Positions 28,461 to 59,837 of a DNA stretch of 64,000 nucleotides are shown in pieces (the first letter of the stretch is position 1; each line of letters opens with the position of its first letter). The notes below the pieces were generated by a model, which worked only from the letters and a program-made list of their open reading frames with translations, made no database searches and was not told the origin of the DNA. Source of the stretch: a virus (taxonomy: Duplodnaviria > Heunggongvirae > Uroviricota > Caudoviricetes > Crassvirales); the IMG/VR virus record IMGVR_UViG_3300033069_000976, positions 29,013 to 93,012 of that record, one strand, 5' to 3'. The position numbers were made by a program, and so were the translations under genes.

Positions 28461-29437
28461 TGTTTCTCTAGTTTCTTACTTGTTAATTTTTTCTCAAGGG
28501 CAATCAGATCAACTTGGTTTTTCTCATCCAGTAATATTTCTACTAGTTCTTCTTTTGAAGTAGCTATAGTTATACCACCTTCCAGTACTTTACCACCTTG
28601 TCCAGGTCTGTATATAGAGTGTGTAAAGGCTTGTTCTACAAGATCTTTCACTTTAATCCTATCATCAGTTGTGTTTATCAACTCATTGAATAGTTTTACA
28701 GGTGCTAAACCTTTATTCTTACCTTCACGGAATTCTGTTTCTTTAAGTTGTGTATCAATTAAATTGTACACCATTTCTTCTTTAGTACTTTCTGTAACAG
28801 GTAATCCCATTAAACGAGCTATTTGTTTCTTTTTTGTAGGAGATAAAGATTCAAAAGCTACAATAGCTTTGTTAATCTCTTTCTTTCTACTATAAGTATC
28901 ACGTTGCTCTGCTTCATCATCTACTATATAATACTTAACCTCAGCAGGTACTTCGCCTCTCCTCCAAGAATCTAATGAAGGAGCAATCCTAGGATGTACT
29001 TTAATCCAGTTCCATGCAATTTCTTTCATTGGATCTGTAGTATCAAAATACTCTTCGTCATTACCTATTTTAACTGGAGAAACTCTTAATTCTGCTCCAA
29101 ACTTTGCAACAAGCTGCTCTTTAGCAGCAGCAAAATTCCAAAACAATGAAGTAGGTTCTAAGATACCAGGAACTCCAAGTGCATTTTCTAATCTGTCCTT
29201 AGTTTCTTTAATCCTTTCTATCTCTGCTTTCTTATCTTCGGCTGATAGCCTATCTAGATAAGGAGCTTTAATATCAAGTCCTGTTCTGTATTTACCAGAT
29301 ATTTCTTTAAATGGTAAAAACATTTCACTTGTTCCAGGAAACCTTGTAAATCCGTGTTTGTCCAATTGTTGATCTATAGTGTTTAATGTTCCACTATATG
29401 ACTTTTTAATAGGTGCTATTTTACCTGCTCTGCCCAT
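28457..29437 (-). CDS. Hypothetical structural protein (326 aa)
   Basis: ORF immediately after the capsid-gene terminator/attenuator. Confidence 0.4.
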   Translation of the reverse strand: MGRAGKIAPIKKSYSGTLNTIDQQLDKHGFTRFPGTSEMFLPFKEISGKYRTGLDIKAPYLDRLSAEDKKAEIERIKETKDRLENALGVPGILEPTSLFWNFAAAKEQLVAKFGAELRVSPVKIGNDEEYFDTTDPMKEIAWNWIKVHPRIAPSLDSWRRGEVPAEVKYYIVDDEAEQRDTYSRKKEINKAIVAFESLSPTKKKQIARLMGLPVTESTKEEMVYNLIDTQLKETEFREGKNKGLAPVKLFNELINTTDDRIKVKDLVEQAFTHSIYRPGQGGKVLEGGITIATSKEELVEILLDEKNQVDLIALEKKLTSKKLEKQ

Positions 29438-29531: not shown

Positions 29532-31082
29532 CTAGAATTGTGGAATCTCCTCTATAAGTACGCAGCGACTAAGATCTTCAATGAATACATCTGAACGGTC
29601 TTCCATCCAAATCTCATATCCAGGGAATTTATTAGCGGCATTAAAACCTTGTGATTTAAAAGCTCCTAAGTGACTCCTACGACCATCAATGTAACCCCAT
29701 TGCATGTTAGGAGTACCAGCTCTACGAACTTCCCTGATATTGTTTACCAGTGAACCATCTGAAGTTGGAGAAACATCAAACACCATAAAGATAGGAGTTG
29801 ATTTTTTGTTCTGACCAAATTCCAGATTTGTTTGTGGTAAATCCAATTCTTTAAGGTGAACAAGTTCTACTTTACCAGTTTCCCTTGTTACAAAAGAATC
29901 AAATGCGAAGTTAAGCTGTAAGTGCTGACCATTACCATTAACAAACTTATCGTTATCACCAACATTAAAGGTCAATCCACTATTGAATGCATCTTCTTTA
30001 ATTGCTTGCTGGAATACGTCAAAACCTGCTTCATTGGTGTACATTTTAACCCTACGGTCTTTAACATCCACCCTACGGTAAAATAAGTCACCAAATACAT
30101 TACGAATCAAATTAGCTGAGAACTCACCCCTGTTGTAAGGAACATAGTTACCAGAGTTACGCATCCTGTAGTAAACGCCAGCAGATACTTTCTTAAGCTC
30201 TTGTTTAGCACCATTGGTCCTAACAATACCTGGTTTAGACCAGATCATACGCTTAACTTTAGTTTCCAGCATTTGCTTCCTCATCATGAACTCAATAAAT
30301 GGTTCCCATTTAATGTCATTACGAGTAACAGCATTTTCTCCCCTTCTATTTTGCATGTAAACCATAATATCTTTTGGTTTACCATTTTCGTCTTTTAACA
30401 TTTTATCATCTGCCCAAGCAGTGATTTTGTGCTCAAAACCATAACCAGCACCCAGTGTCTCAAACATGGTGATTTTATCAGCCAATTTTTGAAGACCACC
30501 TAAGTCTTGGTCAAATTCACCAATAGATACGTCAATTGGATCTACATCAATACCAGGTTGTAACAAGGTACGATTAACGTAATCTACTTGTGGATTACCA
30601 GTTACCAGAGTACATTGATGTAACCAGCCCCTTCCATACTGAGTAGGGTCAGAAGTGATGTAAAAGTTTTGACCATACATCTTATGACCTACTGATATAA
30701 TCATATTCTTGGATACAATAGTATCAAGAACTATTTCAAAGGTTTTACCATCAATACCAATAGTAGCTTGATCCAAGGTACTTTGTGGTACATCAATGAT
30801 TTTAGGGAATCGGAAAGGCATTTCCACATTCCACTTCCAGGTATCACTTAAACCATCAAGGTAGTAAGGGGTACTCTTGTTAATCATATCCAGAAAATCA
30901 TTACTATACAAAGTAGACTGTGTATAGATAGATATAATTTTCTTATCATAATCTGACGGAGCCAAATCATGGAAAGATTCTAAGTGGTTTGAATCAGTTA
31001 ATTTACCAATAGCCCTACCATCCATAGATGATACCCTTGCATAGTTAAGTCCGGTAAATCCAGGTATTGTTTGTAATCCCAT
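29532..31082 (-). CDS. Candidate major capsid protein (516 aa)
   Basis: Position directly after the acidic scaffold-like gene in a terL-portal-x-scaffold-capsid order. Followed by a complex hairpin structure. No sequence-level signature recognised. Confidence 0.45.
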   Translation of the reverse strand: MGLQTIPGFTGLNYARVSSMDGRAIGKLTDSNHLESFHDLAPSDYDKKIISIYTQSTLYSNDFLDMINKSTPYYLDGLSDTWKWNVEMPFRFPKIIDVPQSTLDQATIGIDGKTFEIVLDTIVSKNMIISVGHKMYGQNFYITSDPTQYGRGWLHQCTLVTGNPQVDYVNRTLLQPGIDVDPIDVSIGEFDQDLGGLQKLADKITMFETLGAGYGFEHKITAWADDKMLKDENGKPKDIMVYMQNRRGENAVTRNDIKWEPFIEFMMRKQMLETKVKRMIWSKPGIVRTNGAKQELKKVSAGVYYRMRNSGNYVPYNRGEFSANLIRNVFGDLFYRRVDVKDRRVKMYTNEAGFDVFQQAIKEDAFNSGLTFNVGDNDKFVNGNGQHLQLNFAFDSFVTRETGKVELVHLKELDLPQTNLEFGQNKKSTPIFMVFDVSPTSDGSLVNNIREVRRAGTPNMQWGYIDGRRSHLGAFKSQGFNAANKFPGYEIWMEDRSDVFIEDLSRCVLIEEIPQF

Positions 31083-32381: not shown

Positions 32382-32921
32382 TTAAAATATTTTCTCCCTC
32401 TCTGTGAACAATTTATAAGGTCTAACCTCTACTTTATCTTTAAATTTAAGGTCTAAAATCCTGACACCCATATCTTCAAAGTAAGGGGCTATTTTTCTCT
32501 GTACAGCATTCTTAGTAGTCTTCTTTTTTATATCTGTCCATATAATATCTTCAAGATGGTCTGATAATTCTGCTGCACCGAGTTGTAACATATTAGACCT
32601 GCTATCATTATTTTCCACAAGGAATTTTCTAATATCCTCAATCTCATAATGGATTATCATTCCTATTGATACTGGTTTACCATCTGCTGTAGTAATTGTA
32701 ATAGGTGGTATTTCCATAGTATCTGGTTTAACATGGTCTGTCATGGCATAATCTGCTACCATCCATTTCCAATATGTACCAGGTTTCAATGTTCTATGGT
32801 ATTTTCCCCATCTTAGTATTATAGCTTCCTCATAACCATTAACTACAACCCAAGGTTTTATGTAGTCTGCAAATCTATCTATTGTACTGGCAAGCCATTG
32901 TCCAAATTCAGAGATTCCCAT
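32382..32921 (-). CDS. Hypothetical head-morphogenesis protein (179 aa)
   Basis: ORF between the portal and the scaffold candidate; no protease motif recognised. Confidence 0.35.
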   Translation of the reverse strand: MGISEFGQWLASTIDRFADYIKPWVVVNGYEEAIILRWGKYHRTLKPGTYWKWMVADYAMTDHVKPDTMEIPPITITTADGKPVSIGMIIHYEIEDIRKFLVENNDSRSNMLQLGAAELSDHLEDIIWTDIKKKTTKNAVQRKIAPYFEDMGVRILDLKFKDKVEVRPYKLFTEREKIF

Positions 32922-32923
32922 AA

Positions 32924-35524
32924 TTATTTCTTTTTAGCAGCAGGTTTCTTGGCTTTAGCAGCTTTTAGTTGATTGTTTGAAATAGCAAGGTCATTTTTCA
33001 TATTCTCCCTCTCCACTTTTCTATCTTCAGCTTTTTGCTTATTGTCATTCATCATCTTCTGCATCTCCAGAGAAACCTTCTTATTTTCAATATCCCTCTT
33101 TGTAAGTATCTCCTGATTCTTTGCAGCTAAATTAGCAATCTCCATAATATCTGGAGAACCATCACCATCTGTATCAGTAGAAGGAGCTTGGAAATAAGTT
33201 TTTATCTGTGCCTCTGTTATCTTCGTATTAGCATTAAGGTCTGCTACATATTTCTTCATTTCCATATCTTGTTGGAAATGGGCTTCTTCTTGCTCCAGAG
33301 TAACTGCAACTCTATTATTCTCAGACTCTATCTTAGATTGTTCAAGCTGCATTTCCTGCTTCTTCATTTCCTCTTGCTTATCTCTGAGGTCTTTGAATAT
33401 CTTCTGCATCTGCCTAAGTGAGTTAGTACTGTATAGTACACTTACATCATAGATAGAAGCACCATTCTGCATCATAGCCTGAGATAACTGCCTGAACTCA
33501 TTCAGTAATTGTTGGTCTTCAGATCTGGAAGTAGCAAATATCTTTAAGTCCTTGAGTTTCAAGTCTTTACCTAAAACTTTAATAAAGGCTTGCTCACCAA
33601 GATTGGTGATGTAAGATATAGTACTTTCTTCTTTATTACTTTCTATATATTGAGCAGCATCAAGTACAGCCTGATATAACTGGTCTACTACATAATTATG
33701 TGCTGCAAAATATGGTTCTGTTTGGGCAAAGGATTGAACAAGAGCATTCTGGTTAGCTGTAGCTGTTTCTGTAGCTAAAGCTCCACCAAGTCTTTGTCTG
33801 TTCATACCAATAAGTTCCCAGCACTCACTTTTTAGTTGAGCAGCCAATCTATATCTTGATTCTATCTCTGAAGTCCTTGTTAAATCCAGTCTACCATATT
33901 GACTACCAAAAGATGTTCCACCTTTAGTATTCTCAGGAGAATCATCTACAAAGATAACCCCTCTTTTTCTCGCAGCTTCTTCCCATATTTCCAAGGCATC
34001 TTGACCATCCCCATCTTTAGGAGTTGGAATATGTCTGATAGACATAGCTTGTACAACACCTTTTTCTTTCTCTAGTAATTCATAGAGTTGGTTCATACAA
34101 ACATTGTACAATACCTGGAATGGTTTCATTAAGTCAACCAGGGATTTAGCAGTTGTATTCTTTAGTTCATGAGTTACCCCTATAATTGGGGAGTAATCCA
34201 ACAGTTTAAAAGGTTTCATAAAGAATATATCTGGACCAATCTTTGTACCCTTATACCATTGATTTATCCATCCCCATTGAATATCTATTTCATTAGGGCT
34301 ACCCTCTTTATAGTTCTCATCAACAAGCATTTGTTGAGGTTCTCCTTCTTCATCAATATAGGTAAGTAAACCTGTTTTCTTTTTAGATAAATGATAAGAC
34401 TGTACTACAGTATATTTATAACCAAAGGAAGCGGTAGTATTTGTTAAACCTAACCAGTCCCTTAATTCATCATTATTCTCTTTCATCTCAGACTCAATCA
34501 TCATTCTTTCCTGAAGAACAAGTCTGTTATATGTATCATATATGATACTATCTGGACCAACTTTACCAGAGTAAAGATTTGATTCCCTAACATTTATAAG
34601 ACCATAATCCTGATGGGCTTTTCTAAGATGCTCTATTTCTTCTAAGGATAATTCAGGGAATTTTTCTATAATCTCAGAAATTTCCATTACCTGAACAGTT
34701 CCATTAGCATATGGAACATTCTGCTCACCAGATACTCCTGAAGTATATTTAGCATCAGGTGTTCCTAATTGCCAATAATTCTTAGGATTAACTACCTCTA
34801 TATTAAATCCAGTTTTTGAGTTATCCTCAAATATATGAAAGTACTCTCTGGAAGATATGAGTAAATCCCTGAAAGCATCTTCTGATTTTTCTTTACAATT
34901 AAACTGTACCTTTAAAGCAGTTAAGACATGGTTACCCCATTTCTCCCCTTCAGTAGTAAAGGTATTCATATATTCCTGTACCTTCTCAATAGAAAGCTGT
35001 ACAAACTCTTCTTGGGGAATACTACTAACATCTTCCCCTCTCATCGCTAACTCATTCATTAACAGTTTCTTACCCTCCTGGATAATAAGCTGTTGCATAA
35101 TACCAGTCTTGAATTGTAGCTCTTCATCCTTAGAATCATCATCAAAAGCTCTTACTTTATGCAAGTCAGGTCTTTTAGATAATTCCCCTATCATTGTATT
35201 AACAGGAGGATTCAGTATTGGATAATGCTTTACATATTGTGGAAGCTCTGTATTAGCCATTAGTACTTCTGTAAAAGATTGTACTTCAGGCTGTTGCTGA
35301 TAAAAGTCTGTATAATCAATTATACCTTTCATCAGGTCATAGTTCTTCACAAATGTCCTCCTATGCTTTTTATATTGGGCATAGGCTACATTAGCAAAGT
35401 AATCCATTGTGTTCTTTATCCAAGATGGATCTTCTTTCTCCTTATCAGTTTTAAACTGGTCAGGGAATATATTTAAATAGGCGAACCTTACATTTTCTTC
35501 TTTGGTTACACGGGTAATAATCAT
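32924..35524 (-). CDS. Portal protein candidate (866 aa)
   Basis: Size and position immediately downstream of, and overlapping, the large terminase. The basic C-terminal tail is KAKKPAAKKK. Confidence 0.55.
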   Translation of the reverse strand: MIITRVTKEENVRFAYLNIFPDQFKTDKEKEDPSWIKNTMDYFANVAYAQYKKHRRTFVKNYDLMKGIIDYTDFYQQQPEVQSFTEVLMANTELPQYVKHYPILNPPVNTMIGELSKRPDLHKVRAFDDDSKDEELQFKTGIMQQLIIQEGKKLLMNELAMRGEDVSSIPQEEFVQLSIEKVQEYMNTFTTEGEKWGNHVLTALKVQFNCKEKSEDAFRDLLISSREYFHIFEDNSKTGFNIEVVNPKNYWQLGTPDAKYTSGVSGEQNVPYANGTVQVMEISEIIEKFPELSLEEIEHLRKAHQDYGLINVRESNLYSGKVGPDSIIYDTYNRLVLQERMMIESEMKENNDELRDWLGLTNTTASFGYKYTVVQSYHLSKKKTGLLTYIDEEGEPQQMLVDENYKEGSPNEIDIQWGWINQWYKGTKIGPDIFFMKPFKLLDYSPIIGVTHELKNTTAKSLVDLMKPFQVLYNVCMNQLYELLEKEKGVVQAMSIRHIPTPKDGDGQDALEIWEEAARKRGVIFVDDSPENTKGGTSFGSQYGRLDLTRTSEIESRYRLAAQLKSECWELIGMNRQRLGGALATETATANQNALVQSFAQTEPYFAAHNYVVDQLYQAVLDAAQYIESNKEESTISYITNLGEQAFIKVLGKDLKLKDLKIFATSRSEDQQLLNEFRQLSQAMMQNGASIYDVSVLYSTNSLRQMQKIFKDLRDKQEEMKKQEMQLEQSKIESENNRVAVTLEQEEAHFQQDMEMKKYVADLNANTKITEAQIKTYFQAPSTDTDGDGSPDIMEIANLAAKNQEILTKRDIENKKVSLEMQKMMNDNKQKAEDRKVERENMKNDLAISNNQLKAAKAKKPAAKKK

Positions 35525-38500
35525 CCGAATATTTTTAATTGTTTCTTTCCTGTAAAATTTGTTGATCCAGTAAAGATTTTTGAATTTCCTTTAATTGGGT
35601 TTTTAGCATAATAAGATTGCATTCTTGGGTCAGTTTTGTCACTCCCTACTGCACCTATAACAGGGTCTAATTTATAAGCCAAAGCAACTGCTAATTCAGC
35701 AGCAATTACCCTATCTGTATTTACTTTATGCTTAGGGTCTTTAGAGAATTTAGTAATTTCTTCCAGAAGCATTGGGTCAGGTATTCTTGATACACCTGTA
35801 GTTTCTTTTATAATACTTCCATTTTCATCTTTCTCTATATCTATTATTTCATCCAGGTAGGATTTGAATGTACCATCCAGAAAATTTCTAATTGCGGTAG
35901 CAGACCTATGTATTCCTTTCTTTCTCTTTACAGTAGTATTTGGTACATATTCTTTTAACCATTCTGGCTGGTCTTCTAAATAATGCCCATCATTTCTGGC
36001 AATCATAAAGTCAATAAAAGACATCTCATCATTCTCACACAGGGTTCTGGCATTATAATACTTAATCAGATTCCTGGCATTCTCATTCCATTTCTCTTTA
36101 CTCTGTGGTCTTGCAGCATAGCAAGCTACAAACATATTCTGATATTTCTCTGAAGAAATACCATGCATTCTTTTATAAATATAAACTACTCCAAGTGAAT
36201 CTGAGTATTCTGCTTCACCCTGTCTGTAAGGGTCAACCCCAGCTACATACAATCCAAAAGGAGGGTGTTCCACGGGAAACTCCCATATCTGAATAGGAGC
36301 ATCAGTATCTTGAGTCTTAACAGGAAACTCAGTTATAAATGGTTTATCAGAGAATTCATGTACTATTTTTTCTCCGTTATGGAATATCTTAACAGGTGTC
36401 CCTGTTACACCTAAATCTCTTAACCTTGTTTGTTGAGCTTTAGCAGCCTCTACATTAAAATCATTATGTGTTAAAACCAAGAAGCTATCTGAAGGTTTCA
36501 GGGGCCAGTAGGCTTTAAACTTCAGAATTGTTTTTGAGTTACCTGATTTAACAGCTTTATCATACTCTGGTTCCCACCACTCTCTTAAGGCTCTTTCTTC
36601 ATTAGAAACCAGTATAGTTATATTTTGTAAATCTGGATGGTCTATACCAAGATATTCAGCCAGAGTCTTTGGTTCCTTATAAGCCATTTTAGCTCTGGTA
36701 GCAGCTATAAATCTTCCTATCTTTCCACCACCTTCCCATTCATTCTCAAACTCAAGCATGTTATAGGAATACGGATGGTAGAAAACTTCCGCTGCTTCAG
36801 CACCAACTTCCATATCACCACCAGTTCCACATAACATAACCAAACAAGATGGTTTATTACCTCCACCAGACCACCAGCAACCATCACTATCTTTTATACA
36901 ACCAATAAGATTAGGTAGAGTACCAATCTCATCAATAAGGTGAAAAGAAGGTCTAGTACCATTAGCAGCCATAGTATCAGTACCAGCCTGATAGTTCCTG
37001 ACAAGTATTTTTGAATTGGAAGATTTTGGATTTGGTAAGTTAGATGATTTATCTTTCCAACCAGCTTTAATCTCTTTCTTCCAGTCCGATACAAGTCTTT
37101 GCTTTTTAAATATTGGGTGAATATTAAGCAACCCATCTTCTATCTTATCCGTAGCTAGTTTGATATAATTAGCTGCTCCACCAGATATTACACACTCACT
37201 ATTACTATAAAATGTATATTGATGTCCAGCACAAGATCCTGCAATAACTGAATTATGTGTTACTGTATATCCATCAGTTAAAAAACATTTTGACTTATTA
37301 TCTACTGTAATACAAGTTGCCTGTTCTTTACCAAAATACTCTATATTTACTATAGATGTCTTATCCCCTCTATACTTACCTATATTATTTAACTTTCTTG
37401 GCAGTTTGAATATTGGCTTATCTGTCATAAGATTAAACCTATATTTATCTTTAGCTAAAGTTACTACACCTTTATTTTTATAACTATTTTTTGTCTTTTT
37501 GATAGTTACCTGAATACCTAAACTTCTTACTAATCTATAAAAACCATTTGCAATATTTACATCTGTTGTACAAAATTCTATTACTCCATTTTTCCCACAA
37601 CAACCATCTGTATCCATTATTCCTCTTAATAATTCCATTCTTTGCTCTACAGAGGAATAAAAATAACAATTAGGTATATGTTTATTATTTATTAAATCTA
37701 GCTCTTGAAATTTAGATAAGAGAGAATTTCTTAGTCCACCTTTCATTCCATTACTTATATTATAAGAAATACCATGTTTCCTTACTTGTAAATTATTTTC
37801 TTCTGCATATGTATATACAAAATCTGAAATTTCTTTATCTATTGTAGTTATTCCTAAAGTTCTTTTATTACCATCTCCTAACCATAATCCTAAAAAATAA
37901 GGATTTATTGGTAAATAATTCTCAGAATATTCAACAGGTTTATTATTTGGTATAAAATACCTATATGCCAAACCTTTACTATTTTTATAAGATTTTTTCC
38001 TATTTATCAGGTAGTCAGTTTTTATAGAAGAAAGATTTTTATCCTCATATTTACGGGATGAACTATTCCAAACTCTCCATATATGATTATCACAAGAATA
38101 TAAAACCCTTCCATCTCTTAGGGTAATTTTATATAAGTCTATTAATCCTTGTGGGTAAACCCCAGTAATAGTTGTTAATTTACCATCATCCCCAAATATC
38201 TTATCACCTATTTTAGCATTACCAATTAATATTTCTCCATTATTTGTATATAGAGTGGCTGTATTTATAAGTGCTTTACCAAAGTCCCTGCTACCTACTA
38301 ATGGATAGAATTTACCTTCTTCATTACATCTTTCCAGGTCATTAAATATGTCCCAATCTATATCCCTTAATAAAGGTGTTTCAATTTTCCTTACCTTTTT
38401 CTTATTAGGTAATTCTACATACATTGCAATCTTCCAATAGACCGTATGAAAATACAGTCTGCCGGGAACATGAACTGCCCCATCAGCCAAGTAAAACCCA

Positions 38501-38619
38501 TTCATACACCTGTCTTTCTCTTTTTTCCAGTATTCTATATAAGTCTCCTTATCTGCTGGATTATCAGTTAGTATAGGTTCTACCTGGTCTTTAAACCAGA
38601 TATTTGTAGTTGTTTGCAT
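35521..38619 (-). CDS. terL: Terminase large subunit interrupted by an in-frame intein (1032 aa precursor)
   Basis: Walker A, VGSRDFGK|…|SVIAG, is split by the intein. The C-terminal nuclease-like region has acidic motifs. Gene order terL-portal follows. Confidence 0.7.
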   Translation of the reverse strand: MQTTTNIWFKDQVEPILTDNPADKETYIEYWKKEKDRCMNGFYLADGAVHVPGRLYFHTVYWKIAMYVELPNKKKVRKIETPLLRDIDWDIFNDLERCNEEGKFYPLVGSRDFGKALINTATLYTNNGEILIGNAKIGDKIFGDDGKLTTITGVYPQGLIDLYKITLRDGRVLYSCDNHIWRVWNSSSRKYEDKNLSSIKTDYLINRKKSYKNSKGLAYRYFIPNNKPVEYSENYLPINPYFLGLWLGDGNKRTLGITTIDKEISDFVYTYAEENNLQVRKHGISYNISNGMKGGLRNSLLSKFQELDLINNKHIPNCYFYSSVEQRMELLRGIMDTDGCCGKNGVIEFCTTDVNIANGFYRLVRSLGIQVTIKKTKNSYKNKGVVTLAKDKYRFNLMTDKPIFKLPRKLNNIGKYRGDKTSIVNIEYFGKEQATCITVDNKSKCFLTDGYTVTHNSVIAGSCAGHQYTFYSNSECVISGGAANYIKLATDKIEDGLLNIHPIFKKQRLVSDWKKEIKAGWKDKSSNLPNPKSSNSKILVRNYQAGTDTMAANGTRPSFHLIDEIGTLPNLIGCIKDSDGCWWSGGGNKPSCLVMLCGTGGDMEVGAEAAEVFYHPYSYNMLEFENEWEGGGKIGRFIAATRAKMAYKEPKTLAEYLGIDHPDLQNITILVSNEERALREWWEPEYDKAVKSGNSKTILKFKAYWPLKPSDSFLVLTHNDFNVEAAKAQQTRLRDLGVTGTPVKIFHNGEKIVHEFSDKPFITEFPVKTQDTDAPIQIWEFPVEHPPFGLYVAGVDPYRQGEAEYSDSLGVVYIYKRMHGISSEKYQNMFVACYAARPQSKEKWNENARNLIKYYNARTLCENDEMSFIDFMIARNDGHYLEDQPEWLKEYVPNTTVKRKKGIHRSATAIRNFLDGTFKSYLDEIIDIEKDENGSIIKETTGVSRIPDPMLLEEITKFSKDPKHKVNTDRVIAAELAVALAYKLDPVIGAVGSDKTDPRMQSYYAKNPIKGNSKIFTGSTNFTGKKQLKIFG
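37252..38274 (-). mobile_element. Intein (about 341 aa) with a LAGLIDADG homing-endonuclease domain, inserted in the terminase P-loop between GK and S
   Basis: Block A after Ala1 (ALINTATLYTNNGEILIGNAKIGDKIFGDDG); block B SCDNHIW; LAGLIDADG motifs YFLGLWLGDGN and LLRGIMDTDGC; blocks F/G …CFLTDGYTVTHN followed by Ser+1. Confidence 0.7.
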
Positions 38620-38940
38620 TTATATAAGTCCCTCTTCAAATGGGGATACATCTTTATCTCCCCTTGATGCAATTTTTTTAGCCTCTTCTTTCTCCCTCAT
38701 TATCTCAACCTCTTTCAACAGGGCAAGATAGTTCTTCATGGTTTCCTGGATAAACTTACCCTGAGCTTCTATTGAAGCTATTACCATTGGTAACATACCC
38801 CCTTTAGAAGTGGGTTTCCATTCTATTCTATCTTTTAACTCGTGTAATGGGTTATTATCTACATAAGCTTTCCAACTAAGTAATTGACCTTCAGCCCATT
38901 CTAATTCTGCCTCTGTAAATACACTCTTTTTAGTAGCCAT
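38620..38940 (-). CDS. Hypothetical protein (106 aa), possibly a small terminase-associated protein
   Basis: ORF immediately upstream of terL on the same strand. Confidence 0.35.
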   Translation of the reverse strand: MATKKSVFTEAELEWAEGQLLSWKAYVDNNPLHELKDRIEWKPTSKGGMLPMVIASIEAQGKFIQETMKNYLALLKEVEIMREKEEAKKIASRGDKDVSPFEEGLI

Positions 38941-39215
38941 TAATCTTCCTCCTCTTCATTTAAATACCCATCTTCAAATACATGTTTACCATCTTCCTCT
39001 ATCTCATTGACAAATTTATCAAAAGCTTCTTTAGGCTCAGGTGGTAATATAGACTTATAAGATTTTAACAAGATAAAAAGTTCTTTATCTGATAAAGTCC
39101 ATATATCACCATAATCCATAGTAGCTGTTGCTATATGTTTAGCAATAGAATAGCCAGGATACTCCTTATGTAGTTGTTCTAAAAGAGTTAGAACTTTTTT
39201 AAAATCTGTTCTCAT
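38940..39215 (-). CDS. Hypothetical protein (91 aa)
   Basis: ORF. Confidence 0.4.
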   Translation of the reverse strand: MRTDFKKVLTLLEQLHKEYPGYSIAKHIATATMDYGDIWTLSDKELFILLKSYKSILPPEPKEAFDKFVNEIEEDGKHVFEDGYLNEEEED

Positions 39216-41812: not shown

Positions 41813-42598
41813 TTATTTTAATAATAATATTGTTGCAGCTACTGCTCCAGCAGCTATGAGTACTCTTTCTAACCATCTAGGTTTAGGTGGTGGATCATAA
41901 AAGCTTGAGGATAAACCAGTTGTCTTTATATAATCATTGGTATGGGTTATAATAACCTCAAGCTTGGGTTTCTTGTATATCCTGCGTTTACCATTTATAT
42001 CTTTCTTGAACCACCCACCTGTAGTGGCAAATACTATATTCTGTGTATCAGGAAGGCTTAGGGAATCTATCCTGAACTTCTCCTTTGTAACTGTGCCTTT
42101 AAAGTATAGGTCTGTAGTATCCAGTACAGCTACTTTAGGGACACGAATTACGTTTGAATCACAACTGTCATACTGGATAGGCGGTAGATAGAAATCTGTT
42201 TCTTCTTCCTCATATGGAACATCTACATTTACTACGCTAGTATTAGTTTGAATCTTAGCATAGGCTTTTACCTTCTTTATACTGTTAGCAAGGGATTTCT
42301 TTAGATTCATATTATCCAGTGCTAATTCTTTTATATCTCCTTGATTATCAGTTATAATCACATTCTGTCTCACAACCTCATCTCCTAATTTATTCTTCTC
42401 AATAACCATAGTCTGTAGAGCCAAGGAAGTAGAGTCCAACTTAATCTGTTTAGCATTAAGTTCTCCCCTCCTACACTGGTCCAGCGAAATTAACCCTATT
42501 ATCAACCCTACTATAATAGTATATGTAATAAATCTTTCTTTTGTAAACCAAGTTTTTTTCATAATTTTCTTTTCTAAGTCTGTATATATTTCATTCAT
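41813..42598 (-). CDS. Membrane protein with N- and C-terminal transmembrane helices (261 aa)
   Basis: TIIVGLIIGLISL near the N-terminus and VLIAAGAVAATILLL at the C-terminus. Confidence 0.4.
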   Translation of the reverse strand: MNEIYTDLEKKIMKKTWFTKERFITYTIIVGLIIGLISLDQCRRGELNAKQIKLDSTSLALQTMVIEKNKLGDEVVRQNVIITDNQGDIKELALDNMNLKKSLANSIKKVKAYAKIQTNTSVVNVDVPYEEEETDFYLPPIQYDSCDSNVIRVPKVAVLDTTDLYFKGTVTKEKFRIDSLSLPDTQNIVFATTGGWFKKDINGKRRIYKKPKLEVIITHTNDYIKTTGLSSSFYDPPPKPRWLERVLIAAGAVAATILLLK

Positions 42599-42640
42599 AT
42601 ACCTAATAGTTTTGTTATATATCTAAATGTGTTTATGTCT

Positions 42641-43078
42641 TTACATTCCATATTGATTTCCTTTATAATTCTTTTTACCATTTATTTTAGCATGATTCTC
42701 ATTTTCTAGTTTAGAAACCCATTCTAAATTATCTACATGATTGTTATTTTTATCACAATCTTTATGATTTATTTCTATCTTATTTTCTGGGTTTAATAGG
42801 AAATATTCTCCTACCAATCTGTGAACTAAGAACTTTTTAGATTTTCCATTCTTTTTTAATTCCACTATTAAATAGCCAGTATTATTTTTAAATGGTAATT
42901 TCTCCTTTGCTTTAGAAATTCTCTCTGATTTTGTTCCAAATCTATTACCACATTTAATAACTCTTGATAATGAGATTATTTTTCCAATATTTGAAATTTG
43001 ATAGAAACCCTCATAACCTTTAATATCTTTCCAAAATGTAGATGATATAACTTCTTCCATACTAAGTTTATTCTCCAT
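42641..43078 (-). CDS. HNH homing endonuclease (NUMOD4 + HNH_3 type, 145 aa)
   Basis: WKDIKGYEGFYQISNIGKI (NUMOD4) and INHKDCDKNNNHVDNLEWVSKLEN (HNH). Confidence 0.65.
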   Translation of the reverse strand: MENKLSMEEVISSTFWKDIKGYEGFYQISNIGKIISLSRVIKCGNRFGTKSERISKAKEKLPFKNNTGYLIVELKKNGKSKKFLVHRLVGEYFLLNPENKIEINHKDCDKNNNHVDNLEWVSKLENENHAKINGKKNYKGNQYGM

Positions 43079-43544
43079 AAAATGGTGTTATATGTATTTG
43101 TTTTAATATCTGTCTTAGTTCATTGATACATTTACATTCTCCTTCAAATAATGTTTCAGCTTTGTCAAATTTTTCTCCACCAGTAAAGTCTCCCTTTATT
43201 TTTAACTTATGGTCGCGAAAACCATAATTCAAAAAAACATTATAACACTTATATCCTCCAAAATTCTGTAAACCTGTACCAAATCTTTTATCTTCATTTA
43301 TCTCAAACCAATGGTCTATAGATTTAGCTTTTAAAATAAATCCACAACTTTCAATTTGTTCTTTAGTTAGATAAGGAACTCTTATTTCATTTCTATCTAC
43401 CCATTTAGACAAATCTTCTAATCTGTGAAATTTACAGATGATTTCTTTTTTCCACTCTACAGGCATTATATCCTGTATCTCACATTCATACCCAACTCTT
43501 ATATCTGAAATTTCAGGCTGAAAATATTTTAAATTGTCTTCCAT
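43068..43544 (-). CDS. Hypothetical protein (158 aa)
   Basis: ORF between the two HNH genes. Confidence 0.4.
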   Translation of the reverse strand: MEDNLKYFQPEISDIRVGYECEIQDIMPVEWKKEIICKFHRLEDLSKWVDRNEIRVPYLTKEQIESCGFILKAKSIDHWFEINEDKRFGTGLQNFGGYKCYNVFLNYGFRDHKLKIKGDFTGGEKFDKAETLFEGECKCINELRQILKQIHITPFYGE

Positions 43545-44068
43545 AGTCTTTTTGTTTTAATTCCATAAATAGTATTGTAATTCATATTTGGATAAAAGTT
43601 TTTATGAACTTCAGAAATTTTCATAGTTTTACACTTTTCTCTTATATCTAAAACTTGTTCTTTTGTTAATTTAGAGTTTATATTTTTCTCCCCATCCTGC
43701 CAAGTTTTGTCTTTTAATCCCAAATTCAATGCATGATTTATATTCTCAGAAGGTGTTACCCATTCTAAATTTGAAACCATAGCATTTGCTTTTATTCCAT
43801 CTTTATGATTTACCTGTGCTTTATTCTCAGGATTCTTTAAAAATACTTCTGCAACTATTCTATGTATAGTCTTAGATAATTGCTTTCCTCCTCCACATAA
43901 AGTAATTGCTGGATAACCATCATTAGTTAATCTACATTTCATTATGTAAGCTTTTCTTCTTATAAGTCCAGTATTAGATACTTCATAATATTCTTCATAA
44001 CCAGGAATATCTTTCCATATTTCATCTTCTATAGATGATGTAAAGTATTTATTTTCCATATTCCTCAA
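43529..44068 (-). CDS. HNH homing endonuclease (NUMOD4 + HNH_3 type, 179 aa)
   Basis: WKDIPGYEEYYEVSNTGLI and VNHKDGIKANAMVSNLEWVTPSEN. Confidence 0.65.
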   Translation of the reverse strand: MRNMENKYFTSSIEDEIWKDIPGYEEYYEVSNTGLIRRKAYIMKCRLTNDGYPAITLCGGGKQLSKTIHRIVAEVFLKNPENKAQVNHKDGIKANAMVSNLEWVTPSENINHALNLGLKDKTWQDGEKNINSKLTKEQVLDIREKCKTMKISEVHKNFYPNMNYNTIYGIKTKRLWKTI

Positions 44069-51367: not shown

Positions 51368-51438
51368 GGCTAATTAATCAAGTGGTAAGATAACAGTCTG
51401 CAAAACTGTGTTCACTGGTTCAATCCCAGTATTAGCCT
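51368..51438 (+). tRNA. tRNA-Cys (anticodon GCA)
   Basis: Acceptor GGCTAAT/ATTAGCC with discriminator U73. U8, A14, GG18-19, anticodon loop CU-GCA-AA. T-arm ACTGG-TTCAATC-CCAGT. No encoded CCA. Confidence 0.7.
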
Positions 51439-51454
51439 CTAAAAATATAAAATT

Positions 51455-56689: not shown

Positions 56690-57160
56690 ATGGCAACAAA
56701 AGCAAAAAACATGGAAGTAGCAACTGCAACACAATTTACATTGGAAGAAGTTCCAAATTTACTTCAGCAGGTAAATGATCAAATTAAAAAACTTAAAGGA
56801 GATAAAGAGAGGGCTGCTAAGATAACCACCCCTTTGGGAGCATTCGGGATAATTTCCGATATTAAGGATCCTGCTCGTTTAATGGATGCTTATGCATTCA
56901 TAACAAGGAAAGCGGCTGCTTATGCAGAATTTACCCCTGTATTTCAGGAAGTAGATAGCTTAACTCCTATTAAAGCTTTTACTGAAGGTGGTCATTCTTT
57001 AAAGCAATGGCAGGATGAAATCATGGCTCAGTACAGGGAAACTACTTTTGAATCTAAACTGGCTAAGTTGACCGAAGCTAAGAGGATTTTGGAAGAGAAC
57101 CTAAGCAGGGAGCAAAAGTTTGTTGCTTCTATGCAAAACATTAAAGATTTGTTTGCATAA
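56690..57160 (+). CDS. Hypothetical protein (156 aa), compositionally distinct, terminator-flanked insert within the array
   Basis: ORF plus a downstream hairpin/T-run at about 57177..57214. Confidence 0.5.
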   Translation: MATKAKNMEVATATQFTLEEVPNLLQQVNDQIKKLKGDKERAAKITTPLGAFGIISDIKDPARLMDAYAFITRKAAAYAEFTPVFQEVDSLTPIKAFTEGGHSLKQWQDEIMAQYRETTFESKLAKLTEAKRILEENLSREQKFVASMQNIKDLFA

Positions 57161-57176
57161 TCTTCCATTTTTAATA

Positions 57177-57214
57177 ATAGCCCTCACTTAATTGTGGGGG
57201 CTATTATTTTAAAT
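57177..57214 (+). terminator. Rho-independent terminator
   Basis: ATAGCCCTCAC…GTGGGGGCTAT followed by TATTTTAAATTTTTT. Confidence 0.55.
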
Positions 57215-57239
57215 TTTTTATCATTGAATTTGAATAATT

Positions 57240-57494
57240 ATGAAATATACTAAAGAGTATTATGGAAAAAATAAAATAGTTTTACAGATTGGTCTTGATG
57301 AGGAATTAAGACAATTGGCTTGTGAGTTATTAGGTATAAAATCTTTATCAAATTTATATGCTGGCATGTGTATTAATCTAGGGATTGGGCTACACTGTAA
57401 TGAGGAATGGTATAGGGAGCATGATTATATTATTATATCAAAAGAAGAATTTTATCAACATCAAAATATAAATAAAGCATATGAAATATATTAA
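57240..57494 (+). CDS. -EIY family small protein (84 aa; MKYTKEYY…KAYEIY)
   Basis: ORF; the junction module with the next gene lies at 57478..57494. Confidence 0.5.
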   Translation: MKYTKEYYGKNKIVLQIGLDEELRQLACELLGIKSLSNLYAGMCINLGIGLHCNEEWYREHDYIIISKEEFYQHQNINKAYEIY

Positions 57495-57753
57495 AGGTAC
57501 TTATTACCATATTATTTATAAGTATGTAGATCCATTTTTAGCTTTTTGTCTAGAGGATAATGACAAAAAGATATGGGCAAAAATTGTAAATTTTGACGGA
57601 TCTACTGGTCCAATTCAGGAATTGATTTCTTTTGTAGAAGCTAAATTGGCAACTCCTAAAGAAATAGCTTATTTTGAACATATACAAGCAGGGAATGAAA
57701 CATCTTTTGAGGGGTTTAATTATAAAAATGATGAATATGAAATACTGTATTAA
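57481..57753 (+). CDS. -EIY family small protein (90 aa; MKYIKGTYY…DEYEILY)
   Basis: ORF. Confidence 0.5.
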   Translation: MKYIKGTYYHIIYKYVDPFLAFCLEDNDKKIWAKIVNFDGSTGPIQELISFVEAKLATPKEIAYFEHIQAGNETSFEGFNYKNDEYEILY

Positions 57754-57982
57754 AAGAGTAGGAAATATTTCAGAAATGAATGAATTTTTTACAAAATTAA
57801 ATGATAGAAAGTACTTTTCTATTAATTCTTCTTTTGAAGATGAGTATTATTATTATCATTATCCTTTATGTAATAACAAATGTATATTCCTAGGAAAACA
57901 AAAAGGTTATAAAGAAATATCCTTTGAAGATTTTAAAAGAGTTTATAATCAAAAAGAAATCATAGAATATGAAATATATTAA
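57737..57982 (+). CDS. -EIY family small protein (81 aa from MKYCIKRV; …IEYEIY)
   Basis: Internal ATG embedded in the upstream YEILY-stop; the track ORF starts at 57674. Confidence 0.45.
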   Translation: MKYCIKRVGNISEMNEFFTKLNDRKYFSINSSFEDEYYYYHYPLCNNKCIFLGKQKGYKEISFEDFKRVYNQKEIIEYEIY

Positions 57983-58274
57983 AGGAGATTATATAGTCTT
58001 ATTAACTACTTGTGTTGGAGTAGAAGATATTTGGCGAAGTATACCAATAGGGTATGTTTACAAACTTACTAGAAACTTTGATTGGTTTGCTTTATGTATA
58101 GAAAAGAATATGAATGGAAATTTTGATGGTTGGTCTATAAGTAATTCAAAAGAGAATAAAATATCACATGGTAAAATGACAGTTAGGGCTGCTGCACTAT
58201 ATGAAATTGAGGACTATATAAGAGCTGGTAGACCAGTAAAAGCGAATCAAATAAGGGCATACGAAATTTATTAA
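57969..58274 (+). CDS. -EIY family small protein (101 aa; MKYIKGDY…RAYEIY)
   Basis: ORF. Confidence 0.5.
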   Translation: MKYIKGDYIVLLTTCVGVEDIWRSIPIGYVYKLTRNFDWFALCIEKNMNGNFDGWSISNSKENKISHGKMTVRAAALYEIEDYIRAGRPVKANQIRAYEIY

Positions 58275-58293
58275 ATAATTAAAACTTAATATC

Positions 58294-58542
58294 ATGAAAT
58301 ATCAACTTGTTTATCAATCTTCTAACTACAAAGATTTTCCTAAACCAAAAGTAGGCGAACCTGGGTTTTTTAGAAAACTTGCTAATAATCGTAATAATTG
58401 TGAATTACAAGATGCTAAAAAACGTATTAGAAAGAATTTACATGGTGGGTATAATTATACACCATCCAGAGCTTATTTTAACTTTATTCAAAAACATACT
58501 GTAAAAACCTTTTCTGGTATTTTATGGAATAAAAATATTTAA
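58294..58542 (+). CDS. Small basic protein (82 aa; MKYQLVYQ…)
   Basis: ORF. Confidence 0.45.
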   Translation: MKYQLVYQSSNYKDFPKPKVGEPGFFRKLANNRNNCELQDAKKRIRKNLHGGYNYTPSRAYFNFIQKHTVKTFSGILWNKNI

Positions 58543-58690
58543 CCATGTTAGTTTTAATTATATTAATAGCTATTATAGTTGCTACCATTATTGTATTTGA
58601 ACCAAATATAGACATTACTACTGAAAAAGAAGTACTCTTATGGTTCAATAATAGTGGTTATAAAAGGAAATTTATAAAATTGTTTAATTT

Positions 58691-59002
58691 ATGACAAAGA
58701 AAGAAATCTTAACAAAACTAATTAGAAAATATAACTTAGTTTTACGTGAAATAAAACCTGTTAAAGACTATAGAGAGATACTTAGAATTGTTGATAATCA
58801 TAATTGTGGAATGGGAATATGTACTGTGACTGATGCCAATTTTAATGTAAGCATATATAATAAAGCATGGGTAAATAGAGAAAAAACAGATAATTTCTAT
58901 TGGCATACTTATCCCAATGAGGTAACTAGTAAAGCTGAAATTATTGATTGCTTACAATTTAGAGTTGATAAAATGAAAAAAATACTAAAAACCTGTAAAT
59001 GA
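58691..59002 (+). CDS. Hypothetical protein (103 aa); paralog of 48017..48394
   Basis: Shared C-terminal motif LQFRVDKMKKIL. Confidence 0.45.
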   Translation: MTKKEILTKLIRKYNLVLREIKPVKDYREILRIVDNHNCGMGICTVTDANFNVSIYNKAWVNREKTDNFYWHTYPNEVTSKAEIIDCLQFRVDKMKKILKTCK

Positions 59003-59232
59003 AGAGTAAAGAACAGAAGTTAATAGATATATGTTTTTCATTATGTATATCTCAACTTATAGATATGAAGAAGTATCCCGAAATATGGAAAAATAAATCT
59101 ATACCAGAAGTAGCTGAATGGATTACTGATCAATTAAAACAATGTGGTTTTGAAACTTTTCCAATAGGTTCTTCATGGGGAGTATTAATAGAGGATAAAG
59201 ATTTACTAAAAAAATTAAAGGGGGGAATATGA
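58999..59232 (+). CDS. Small protein (77 aa)
   Basis: ORF with a 4-nt overlap. Confidence 0.4.
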   Translation: MKSKEQKLIDICFSLCISQLIDMKKYPEIWKNKSIPEVAEWITDQLKQCGFETFPIGSSWGVLIEDKDLLKKLKGGI

Positions 59233-59837
59233 ATATAACATTAGAAAAATACATAAAAGTACTTAATGCAGGATTTTCACTGGATATACTGTATTTGTTA
59301 AAACTTATTAAAGATAAAGTAGATATAACAGATGCTATCCTTCTTCCTAAAATAGGAGCTATTAACCAGATGTTATTAAGAAAACAATTAATAACTGAAG
59401 ACAATCAGGTTACTATGTCTGGAGAAGAGTTATTGTCTTATATGGAAGACGATGGAAACCCTAAAGAGTTAGTTAAGAGGTTGAAAACCAATGATTTTGA
59501 GAAGTGGTGGGTTACTTATCCTGCAACAAACATGTTTGTTTATAAGAATAAGACCTTTAAAGGTACTCAAAGTAAAAGAGTTAAGAAGCTGGATTGTAAA
59601 CAATTGTTTAACAAGTACATTAATGAAGGTTTTACTGCTGATGATATAATAAATGCTACTGAATATCATATTCAAATGGCAAAGGATTTATCTTTTAAAA
59701 AAGGAGAAAATCAGATAAGTTTTATAGGTAATTCCTATAGATATTTAAATGAGAAGATGTTTCAACCTTTTATTGAGATTTACAAACAAAATATTAACAA
59801 ACAACCTGAACAGGTTGGAAATGCTGTAGATATATGA
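59229..59837 (+). CDS. Hypothetical protein (202 aa)
   Basis: ORF. Confidence 0.5.
   Translation: MNITLEKYIKVLNAGFSLDILYLLKLIKDKVDITDAILLPKIGAINQMLLRKQLITEDNQVTMSGEELLSYMEDDGNPKELVKRLKTNDFEKWWVTYPATNMFVYKNKTFKGTQSKRVKKLDCKQLFNKYINEGFTADDIINATEYHIQMAKDLSFKKGENQISFIGNSYRYLNEKMFQPFIEIYKQNINKQPEQVGNAVDI

Follow-up and report, generated by a model that had tools for sequence, protein, structure and literature searches.

The terL locus and its insert

The stretch of DNA analysed here (the window) comprises 64,000 nucleotides, positions 29,013 to 93,012 of the IMG/VR virus record IMGVR_UViG_3300033069_000976, from a phage of the Crassvirales. On its minus strand, at 35521..38619 (window coordinates are used throughout unless a contig is named), lies an open reading frame (ORF) for a protein of 1032 residues, in which an N-extein, an intein and a C-extein can be distinguished and which belongs by its ORF listing and family match to the large terminase (TerL) family PHROG 6681. 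A first-pass annotation, made from the letters of the sequence, had described the segment 37252..38274 as a LAGLIDADG intein which begins with Ala and interrupts the Walker A P-loop of TerL. The peptides that it quoted (VGSRDFGK at the upstream junction, YFLGLWLGDGN, LLRGIMDTDGC, and SVIAGSCAGH at the downstream junction) are all present, its coordinates are exact and the first codon of the segment does encode Ala. The strand, which was absent from that description, can now be added. A plus-strand reading of 37252..38274 was considered and rejected, as it is riddled with stop codons; the feature lies on the minus strand, inside one uninterrupted ORF.

The insert is 341 residues long (residues 116–456 of the precursor) and is bounded by the junctions ...PLVGSRDFGK/ALINTATLY... 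and ...GYTVTHN/SVIAGSCAGH..., where the slash marks the boundary with the extein. It begins with a GCA codon for the non-nucleophilic Ala1 (38272..38274) and ends with an AAT codon for Asn (37252-37254). The N-extein (residues 1–115; 38275..38619, minus strand) ends with the start of the Walker A motif, G109-S-R-D-F-G-K115 (codons 38275..38295), and the C-extein (residues 457–1032 and the stop codon; 35521..37251, minus strand) begins with Ser+1 (TCA, 37249..37251), which completes the motif as GK/S. The insert is therefore located between the Lys and the Ser of GSRDFGK/S. Its GC content is 26.7%, compared with 35–36% in the exteins, and is the minimum of the late-gene block (z = -2.9). This low GC content, the absence of the segment from a near-identical protein, the Pfam matches and the AlphaFold2/Foldseek results together support its delimitation as an intein.

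When the predicted spliced protein was used as a query, 2,662 homologues were found, and about 115 of the best 120 are 682–713 residues long and do not have the segment. One of these, the metagenomic protein P0001 (691 residues), matches the predicted spliced product with 99% identity over 100% of the length of the latter, and what it lacks is exactly the 341 residues in question. In an alignment with 12 relatives (A1), the gap corresponds exactly to residues 116–456 in 11 of them, and K115 is directly followed by S457 wherever the intein is missing; P0021 in the same alignment carries an orthologous intein (ALINTATLY...TVTHN/S) at the same site. P0001 is encoded on the contig L001, which is syntenic with the window. 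Both the L001 gene and the window gene after excision of the insert are 2076 nt long, with the junction GGTAAA/TCAGTT. Neither this agreement nor the Pfam and family matches given below can be put down to chance. Since an allele with 99% identity exists without it, the insert is exact and dispensable. The only point in favour of the 341 residues being a normal, lineage-specific TerL domain, rather than an insertion, is the uninterrupted reading frame. In addition to the intein-less homologues and alignment A1, on which this explanation was rejected, the segment's own homologues sit in helicases, dCTP deaminases, uracil-DNA glycosylases and other unrelated hosts, and we regard it as practically out of the question. 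The first-pass annotation had pointed to the terL genes of intein-less relatives as the comparison to be made, and P0001 bears out its proposal: the segment is not a normal conserved domain of these terminases.

The 1032-residue ORF matches PHROG 6681, ‘terminase large subunit’, with an E-value of 1.9e-67, and the intein-less P0001 matches the same family in one piece (residues 21–644, E 4.6e-70). In the numbering of the spliced protein, G109, R111, G114, K115 and S116 are invariant across 40 intein-less TerL homologues, as are D222 and E223 of a Walker B-like motif, FHLIDE (hhhhDE), in the C-extein (36928..36945, minus strand). An AlphaFold2 model of the spliced protein has a strand at residues 104–109, a loop at 110–114 and a helix at 115–129, and this modelled strand–loop–helix around GSRDFGKS is the canonical P-loop arrangement. 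The top Foldseek matches of the model are the terminases of T4 (gp17; 3cpe, E 2e-7), T7, HSV-1, Sf6 and D6E. The gp17 motif, read directly from the T4 genome record, is SRQLGKT at residues 161–167, and the earlier description of the restored motif as a T4 gp17-like P-loop is accurate. Two properties of the model count against this reading: its confidence is moderate (pLDDT 75), and the TM-scores against solved terminases are low, at about 0.2–0.32, the fold match being qualitative only. The extein gave no Pfam terminase match, and no match to PDB sequences in either single-sequence or profile searches, so the assignment of TerL and of its Walker A motif was made from PHROG matches, conserved residues and the modelled fold.

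The neighbouring genes are those expected of a head-gene block. Directly downstream of terL is the portal gene (32924..35524, minus strand; PHROG 6547, E 9e-96), and two genes beyond the portal is the crAss-type major capsid gene (29532..31082, minus strand; Pfam Crass_capsid, PF23898). The order terL–portal–capsid is the same in L001 and in a further contig, L002. On its motifs, its fold and its head-gene neighbourhood, the host gene is a phage large terminase.

Domain architecture and splicing class

Pfam detected Hom_end (E 3.3e-9) and LAGLIDADG_3 (E 8.1e-9) in the insert, both above their curated cut-offs. The only NCBIfam match, to a model of an archaeal RNA polymerase A'' that contains an intein, was sub-threshold (28–30 bits, against a cut-off of 783) and says no more than that an intein is present. 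The insert was modelled by AlphaFold2 with five flanking residues on each side, giving a pLDDT of 92.5 and a pTM of 0.90. The best Foldseek match of this model is PI-SceI (E 2e-18, TM 0.70); its other neighbours are TliVMA, PhoVMA and PI-PfuI, followed by the mini-inteins gp41-1, MchDnaB1 and Ssp/Npu DnaB, and the free-standing I-DmoI. The architecture of the model is that of a HINT domain (about residues 1–100 and 300–341) split by a two-motif LAGLIDADG domain.

Residues were matched to those of PI-SceI by phmmer against PDB, and conservation was assessed in an alignment of 44 intein sequences (A2). The first LAGLIDADG motif, YFLGLWLGDGN (37867..37899, minus strand), aligns with LLGLWIGDG of PI-SceI, its predicted catalytic Asp corresponding to D218, and G134, G138 and D139 are invariant in A2. 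The second, LLRGIMDTDGC (37600..37632, minus strand), aligns with FLAGLIDSDG, its predicted catalytic Asp corresponding to D326; here D226, D228 and G229 are invariant. Upstream of this second motif, the sequence KHIPN (37669..37683, minus strand) aligns with K301 of PI-SceI and is likewise invariant. Judged by these motifs, the insert has the sequence characteristics of a double-motif LAGLIDADG homing endonuclease. PI-SceI, from yeast VMA1, shares the two-part layout of a HINT domain split by a double-motif LAGLIDADG domain, and the counterparts of its D218, K301 and D326 are conserved in the insert. It differs in being a class 1 intein (its structures are deposited with a Cys1 N-terminus) of eukaryotic origin, with an extra DNA-recognition region and a length of 454 residues, and it is only ∼16% identical to the intein described here.

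The blocks of the splicing domain, all on the minus strand, can be located as follows. Block B, LYSCDNHIWRVW (38068..38103), includes C61-D-N-H64-I-W66, with Cys61 at B:7, His64 at B:10 (38083..38085) and Trp66 at B:12 (38077..38079). Block F, EQATCITVDNKSKCFL (37279..37326), includes ATC321ITVDN, in which Cys321 at F:4 (codon 37312..37314) is the predicted class 3 nucleophile. Block G, GYTVTHN (37252..37272), ends with T339-H-N, comprising Thr339 at G:5, His340 and the cyclising residue Asn341, and is followed by Ser457 (+1). Lys at -1, His B:10, Trp B:12, Cys F:4 and the terminal Thr-His-Asn are all invariant in A2.

Much the same pattern is seen when related intein domains are considered more widely: of 231 that are complete, 216 have the Trp/Cys/Thr triplet, 218 have Trp B:12 and the block F Cys together, and 219 have THN. 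Of the 216 triplet-bearing domains, 103 have Ser at +1, 96 have Thr and 17 have Cys, and in 113 the two residues preceding the +1 junction are Gly-Lys. Ala is the commonest residue at position 1 of the triplet-bearing relatives, whether this position is obtained by back-extrapolation (101/216) or by explicit alignment (27/75). In the explicit N-terminal alignment, 79 of 85 relatives with Trp and Cys start with a non-nucleophilic residue (Ala, Gln, Met, Gly, Glu and others), and the three relatives that truly lack both Trp and Cys all start with Cys. A Fisher test of the triplet against an N-terminal nucleophile was not significant (p = 0.15), most of the ‘non-triplet’ rows being incomplete local alignments. 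When a mini-intein version of the query was used, its Trp and Cys aligned residue for residue with those of MchDnaB1 (PDB 6rix; block F VRCVEVDN).

Class 3 inteins are defined by a non-nucleophilic residue 1, by co-varying Trp B:12, Cys F:4 and Thr G:5, and by Ser or Thr (rarely Cys) at +1, and they are mostly found in the P-loops of helicases and terminases (PMC2807308). Class 2 inteins have neither an N-terminal nucleophile nor the Trp/Cys/Thr triplet (PMC2807308). Every sequence feature of the class 3 definition is found here, and the lack of a triplet that characterises class 2 is not; it is because the triplet is present that we assign the intein to class 3 rather than class 2. The first-pass annotation had left both classes open, and Ala1 is indeed common to the two (PMC2807308). 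Were this a class 2 intein like KlbA, the +1 nucleophile would attack the N-terminal junction directly, with no block F branched intermediate. The Mja KlbA intein also has Ala1, and hence no first acyl shift, but it lacks the triplet, whereas Trp66, Cys321 and Thr339 are all present here and are invariant across the relatives. Its +1 residue is Cys, as its mutation analogous to T+1A is C+1A (PMC2807308), and not Ser as in this intein. Furthermore, the known KlbA inteins are archaeal orthologues in hosts unlike helicases or terminases (PMC2807308). A class 2 mechanism is thus highly improbable.

Taking host, insertion site and splicing blocks together, we estimate a probability of about 0.9 that the insert in the Walker A loop is a class 3 LAGLIDADG intein whose splicing is required for an active terminase, with the doubt attaching to its activity and not to its identity. 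The parts of the original proposal hold up. The LAGLIDADG intein is supported by Pfam, by the PI-SceI alignment and by AlphaFold2/Foldseek, and the large terminase by PHROG 6681, by T4 gp17 as the closest fold and by the portal and capsid neighbours. Insertion in the Walker A P-loop is supported by the invariant G109, R111, G114, K115 and S116 and the strand–loop–helix model. The terminal His-Asn and the Ser or Thr at +1, on which the earlier description also depended, are conserved across relatives, and the triad that it suggested looking for is the one that separates class 3 from class 2.

By homology to the MP-Be DnaB, Msm DnaBi1 and MchDnaB1 inteins, we infer the following route of splicing. 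TerL would be made as a 1032-residue precursor with a split P-loop, expected to be inactive as an ATPase. An N–S acyl shift is impossible at residue 1, because this residue is Ala. Instead, Cys321 (F:4), activated by His64 and Trp66, would attack the carbonyl of Lys115 to give a branched thioester at block F, from which the N-extein would move to the side chain of Ser+1, giving a branched ester at block G. Cyclisation of Asn341, assisted by His340, would then release the intein, and an O–N shift would restore the peptide bond, leaving a 691-residue TerL with an intact GSRDFGKS.

It is conceivable that the insert has decayed and no longer splices, in which case terL would be non-functional and the genome defective or mis-assembled. 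There is a precedent in an inactive class 3 intein within a pseudogene, Arthrobacter Arth_1007 (PMC3196547). However, the ORF of the window is uninterrupted for 1032 codons, and no catalytic position of either the splicing or the endonuclease domain has been lost, each of them falling in an invariant alignment column. At the protein level the exteins share 99% identity with the intein-less allele, and the 105 nt differences between the spliced window gene and the L001 gene are mostly synonymous, which indicates purifying selection. Given that a phage cannot do without TerL, and that the late genes around it are intact, we consider a dead intein to be very unlikely.

One residue of block B departs from the usual pattern. 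B:7 is Cys61 (codon 38092..38094, minus strand) and not the usual Thr or Ser, although Cys is found at this position in 87 of the 216 triplet-bearing relatives. DnaBi1 of M. smegmatis, which is also a class 3 intein in a P-loop, is kept from splicing under oxidising conditions by a reversible disulfide between Cys48 and Cys118. By its position, Cys61 should adjoin the predicted nucleophile Cys321, and under oxidising conditions the two might form a similarly reversible disulfide and so prevent splicing. The intein might then be a conditional packaging switch, governed by a Cys61–Cys321 redox disulfide, and not merely a neutral parasite. If so, redox conditions in the Bacteroidota host would decide whether the terminase is activated and hence whether DNA is packaged. 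We give this idea little credence at present. A second Cys in block F, Cys330, is not conserved.

Distribution and mobility

The intein belongs to a very large family: 18,945 cluster representatives match the insert at E<=1e-3, 2,982 of them at E<=1e-30, and the hosts include terminases, replicative helicases, dCTP deaminases, uracil-DNA glycosylases and methyltransferase-like proteins. The same P-loop site is occupied in crAss-like terminases with exteins only 30–56% identical, in which the inteins are 46–66% identical. Comparing intein with extein in individual distant pairs gives identities of 66 versus 56%, 53 versus 38% and 51 versus 31%. That divergence in these pairs is smaller for the intein than for the gene carrying it indicates lateral movement. 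Among the close relatives of this TerL, the intein is sporadic.

The window and L001 are 99–100% identical in nucleotide sequence over most of 7.7 kb. Around the intein site, from the start of the contig (-900 nt) to about +600 nt (approximately 38275..39187 and 36650..37251 in the window), the identity falls to 87–93%. This divergent patch is consistent with import of the intein, together with its flanks, from a relative diverged by ∼10%. A candidate target for the endonuclease is found in the intein-less L001 (at about nt 800–1050), reading ...TTTGGTAAA/TCAGTTATTGCAG..., also given as ...GGGATTTTGGTAAA/TCAGTTATTGCAGGT..., and its central 22 bp (-9 to +13) are identical in this intein-less allele. 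During co-infection the endonuclease would be expected to cut an intein-less terL at the conserved P-loop codons, and repair would then copy the intein in (homing).

Several observations weigh against this account. In P0021, the closest intein-bearing relative, intein and extein are both 75% identical to those of the window, which vertical descent fits equally well. The divergent patch is not centred on the intein and reaches the end of the L001 contig; it shows recombination but does not prove a co-conversion tract, and for this reason we claim no more for that interpretation than consistency with the data. The gene-position collection of public assemblies contains no entry for the exact precursor, and a scan of IMG/VR with the intein gave only 28%-identical relatives. 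Neither a donor nor a near-identical copy of the intein was identified, and a profile of the intein family, run against the window translated in six frames, yielded no second copy.

The equal divergence in P0021, the failure to find a near-identical copy elsewhere and the off-centre patch could all be accommodated if the intein were competent to splice but its endonuclease were inactive, such that it is resident and vertically inherited and not currently homing. Nevertheless, the Asp of each LAGLIDADG motif is conserved, as is the Lys that corresponds to K301 of PI-SceI, the endonuclease domain is modelled with high confidence, and the intein is polymorphic in presence between genomes that are 99–100% identical in its flanks. 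The greater conservation of intein than of extein in distant pairs and the identity of the central 22 bp of the target in the intein-less allele also speak for an endonuclease that retains its function. An inactive endonuclease therefore seems unlikely, if by no means negligible.

Identity between the window and L001 is thus mosaic: it also falls from +1200 to +1500 nt, and in the capsid region it drops in places to 91–97%.

Relation to known inteins and genome context

TerL is the commonest intein host in mycobacteriophages, with several independent insertion sites, and some of these inteins are class 3 (Kelley 2016, PMC5050341). Insertion between the invariant Lys and a nucleophilic Thr is the ‘classic’ P-loop site; the mycobacteriophage TerL inteins splice, and two that bear LAGLIDADG domains cleave their intein-less partners (PMC5050341). 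Leaving aside its own splicing class, the TerL1-a group of mycobacteriophage inteins resembles the present one in occupying the site between the Walker A Lys and a hydroxyl residue. The TerL1-a hosts, however, are actinobacteriophages, whereas the host here is a crAss-like phage with a different TerL family (PHROG 6681, with no Pfam Terminase match).

The class 3 prototype, MP-Be DnaB (Tori 2010, PMC2807308), is alike in its non-nucleophilic residue 1, its Trp/Cys/Thr triplet and its Ser/Thr at +1. It too has a P-loop ATPase of phage origin as its host and is of similar size, the catalytic Cys being residue 320 compared with the predicted Cys321 here. It differs in that the host is a helicase and not a terminase, that residue 1 is Pro (scissile Gln-1/Pro1) and not Ala, and that B:7 is Ser and not Cys. 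The biochemical proof of mechanism belongs to this prototype, while the class of the present intein is assigned by sequence. MchDnaB1 and Msm DnaBi1 (PDB 6rix/6riy and 6bs8; PMC7664689, PMC6195587) are likewise class 3 inteins in an ATPase P-loop and are Foldseek neighbours of the insert. These are mini-inteins, which have lost the endonuclease and retain a linker in its place, in contrast to the apparently intact LAGLIDADG domain seen here, and their sequence similarity to it is weak (E 0.006–0.4).

Inteins have also been reported in the same gene of the same phage group. In the sections of Yutin 2021 (PMC7886860) drawn on here, it is stated of Delta-group crAss-like phages that ‘TerL typically contains an intein’, and one genome is described with two ‘Hint-Hop’ TerL inteins; those sections assign neither splicing classes nor insertion sites. 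Class 3 inteins that split the P-loop of phage terminases and helicases between Lys and Ser or Thr have been described before (Tori 2010; Kelley 2016). Thus the type of element, its mechanism, its preferred site and its presence in crAss-like TerL have all been published already, and no new question is opened by the present example.

What is modestly useful about it is that the host is an environmental crAss-like phage, that the endonuclease has been retained and that a near-isogenic partner without the intein exists. For annotation, the 1032-residue ORF should be described as a TerL precursor with an intein at residues 116–456 and a predicted mature terminase of 691 residues, and phylogenies and family models of crAss-like terminases should use the spliced sequence. 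The window and L001 form a natural intein-plus/intein-minus pair, with flanking genes 99–100% identical, which is convenient for tests of class 3 splicing and of homing. The intein also adds an environmental crAss-like example of class 3 inteins circulating among phage P-loop ATPases.

Other TerL sequences in alignment A1 contain inteins at different positions. P0047 and P0101 have a Cys1-type intein (MLCG/C...N/TGGDM) in the TerL ATPase domain, at a site equivalent to about 36820 of the window (after ...VMLCG). P0008 has a Cys1-type intein (YVAG/CLLPG...THN/CDPYR) in the C-terminal half, equivalent to about 36235 (after ...LYVAG); it adjoins the invariant Asp of GVDPYR, the usual Val being replaced by Cys as the +1 nucleophile. 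The mycobacteriophage TerL inteins described by Kelley et al. lie only in the ATPase domain (PMC5050341). Among the intein-matching representatives P0241–P0387, many are 1200–2250 residues long, with 2–6 separate matching stretches, which suggests that these hosts carry several inteins of the same family.

The window derives from an environmental phage of the crAss-like group; its genome is of the Bacteroidota type (32% GC), and it is not closely related to any phage that has been cultured or deposited. Among deposited phages, other crAss-like phages and Cellulophaga phage phi14:2 match best; identity in TerL is 25–35% for the top-ranked records and falls short of 60% for every record. Its relatives derive from JGI, ENA and Logan metagenomes.

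Immediately after the portal gene, the window and its relatives differ in gene content. In the window this slot (32382..32921, minus strand) encodes a 179-residue SPFH/Band 7 protein (PF01145, E 2.6e-12), whereas in L001 (5243..5725) and L002 (6312..6797) it encodes a 160-residue ClpP-like protease, for which no ORF was found anywhere in the 64-kb window. The two proteins have no BLASTP similarity, and the difference is a non-homologous gene replacement. Otherwise L001 is 99–100% identical to the window, and L002 is more distant. The sole Rfam match in the window is a tRNA-Cys (anticodon GCA; 51368..51439, plus strand) in the early/middle region. The 1-kb stretches of lowest GC content in the window, at about 42500..43700 and 57100..59400, have 25–26% GC, which is below that of the intein.

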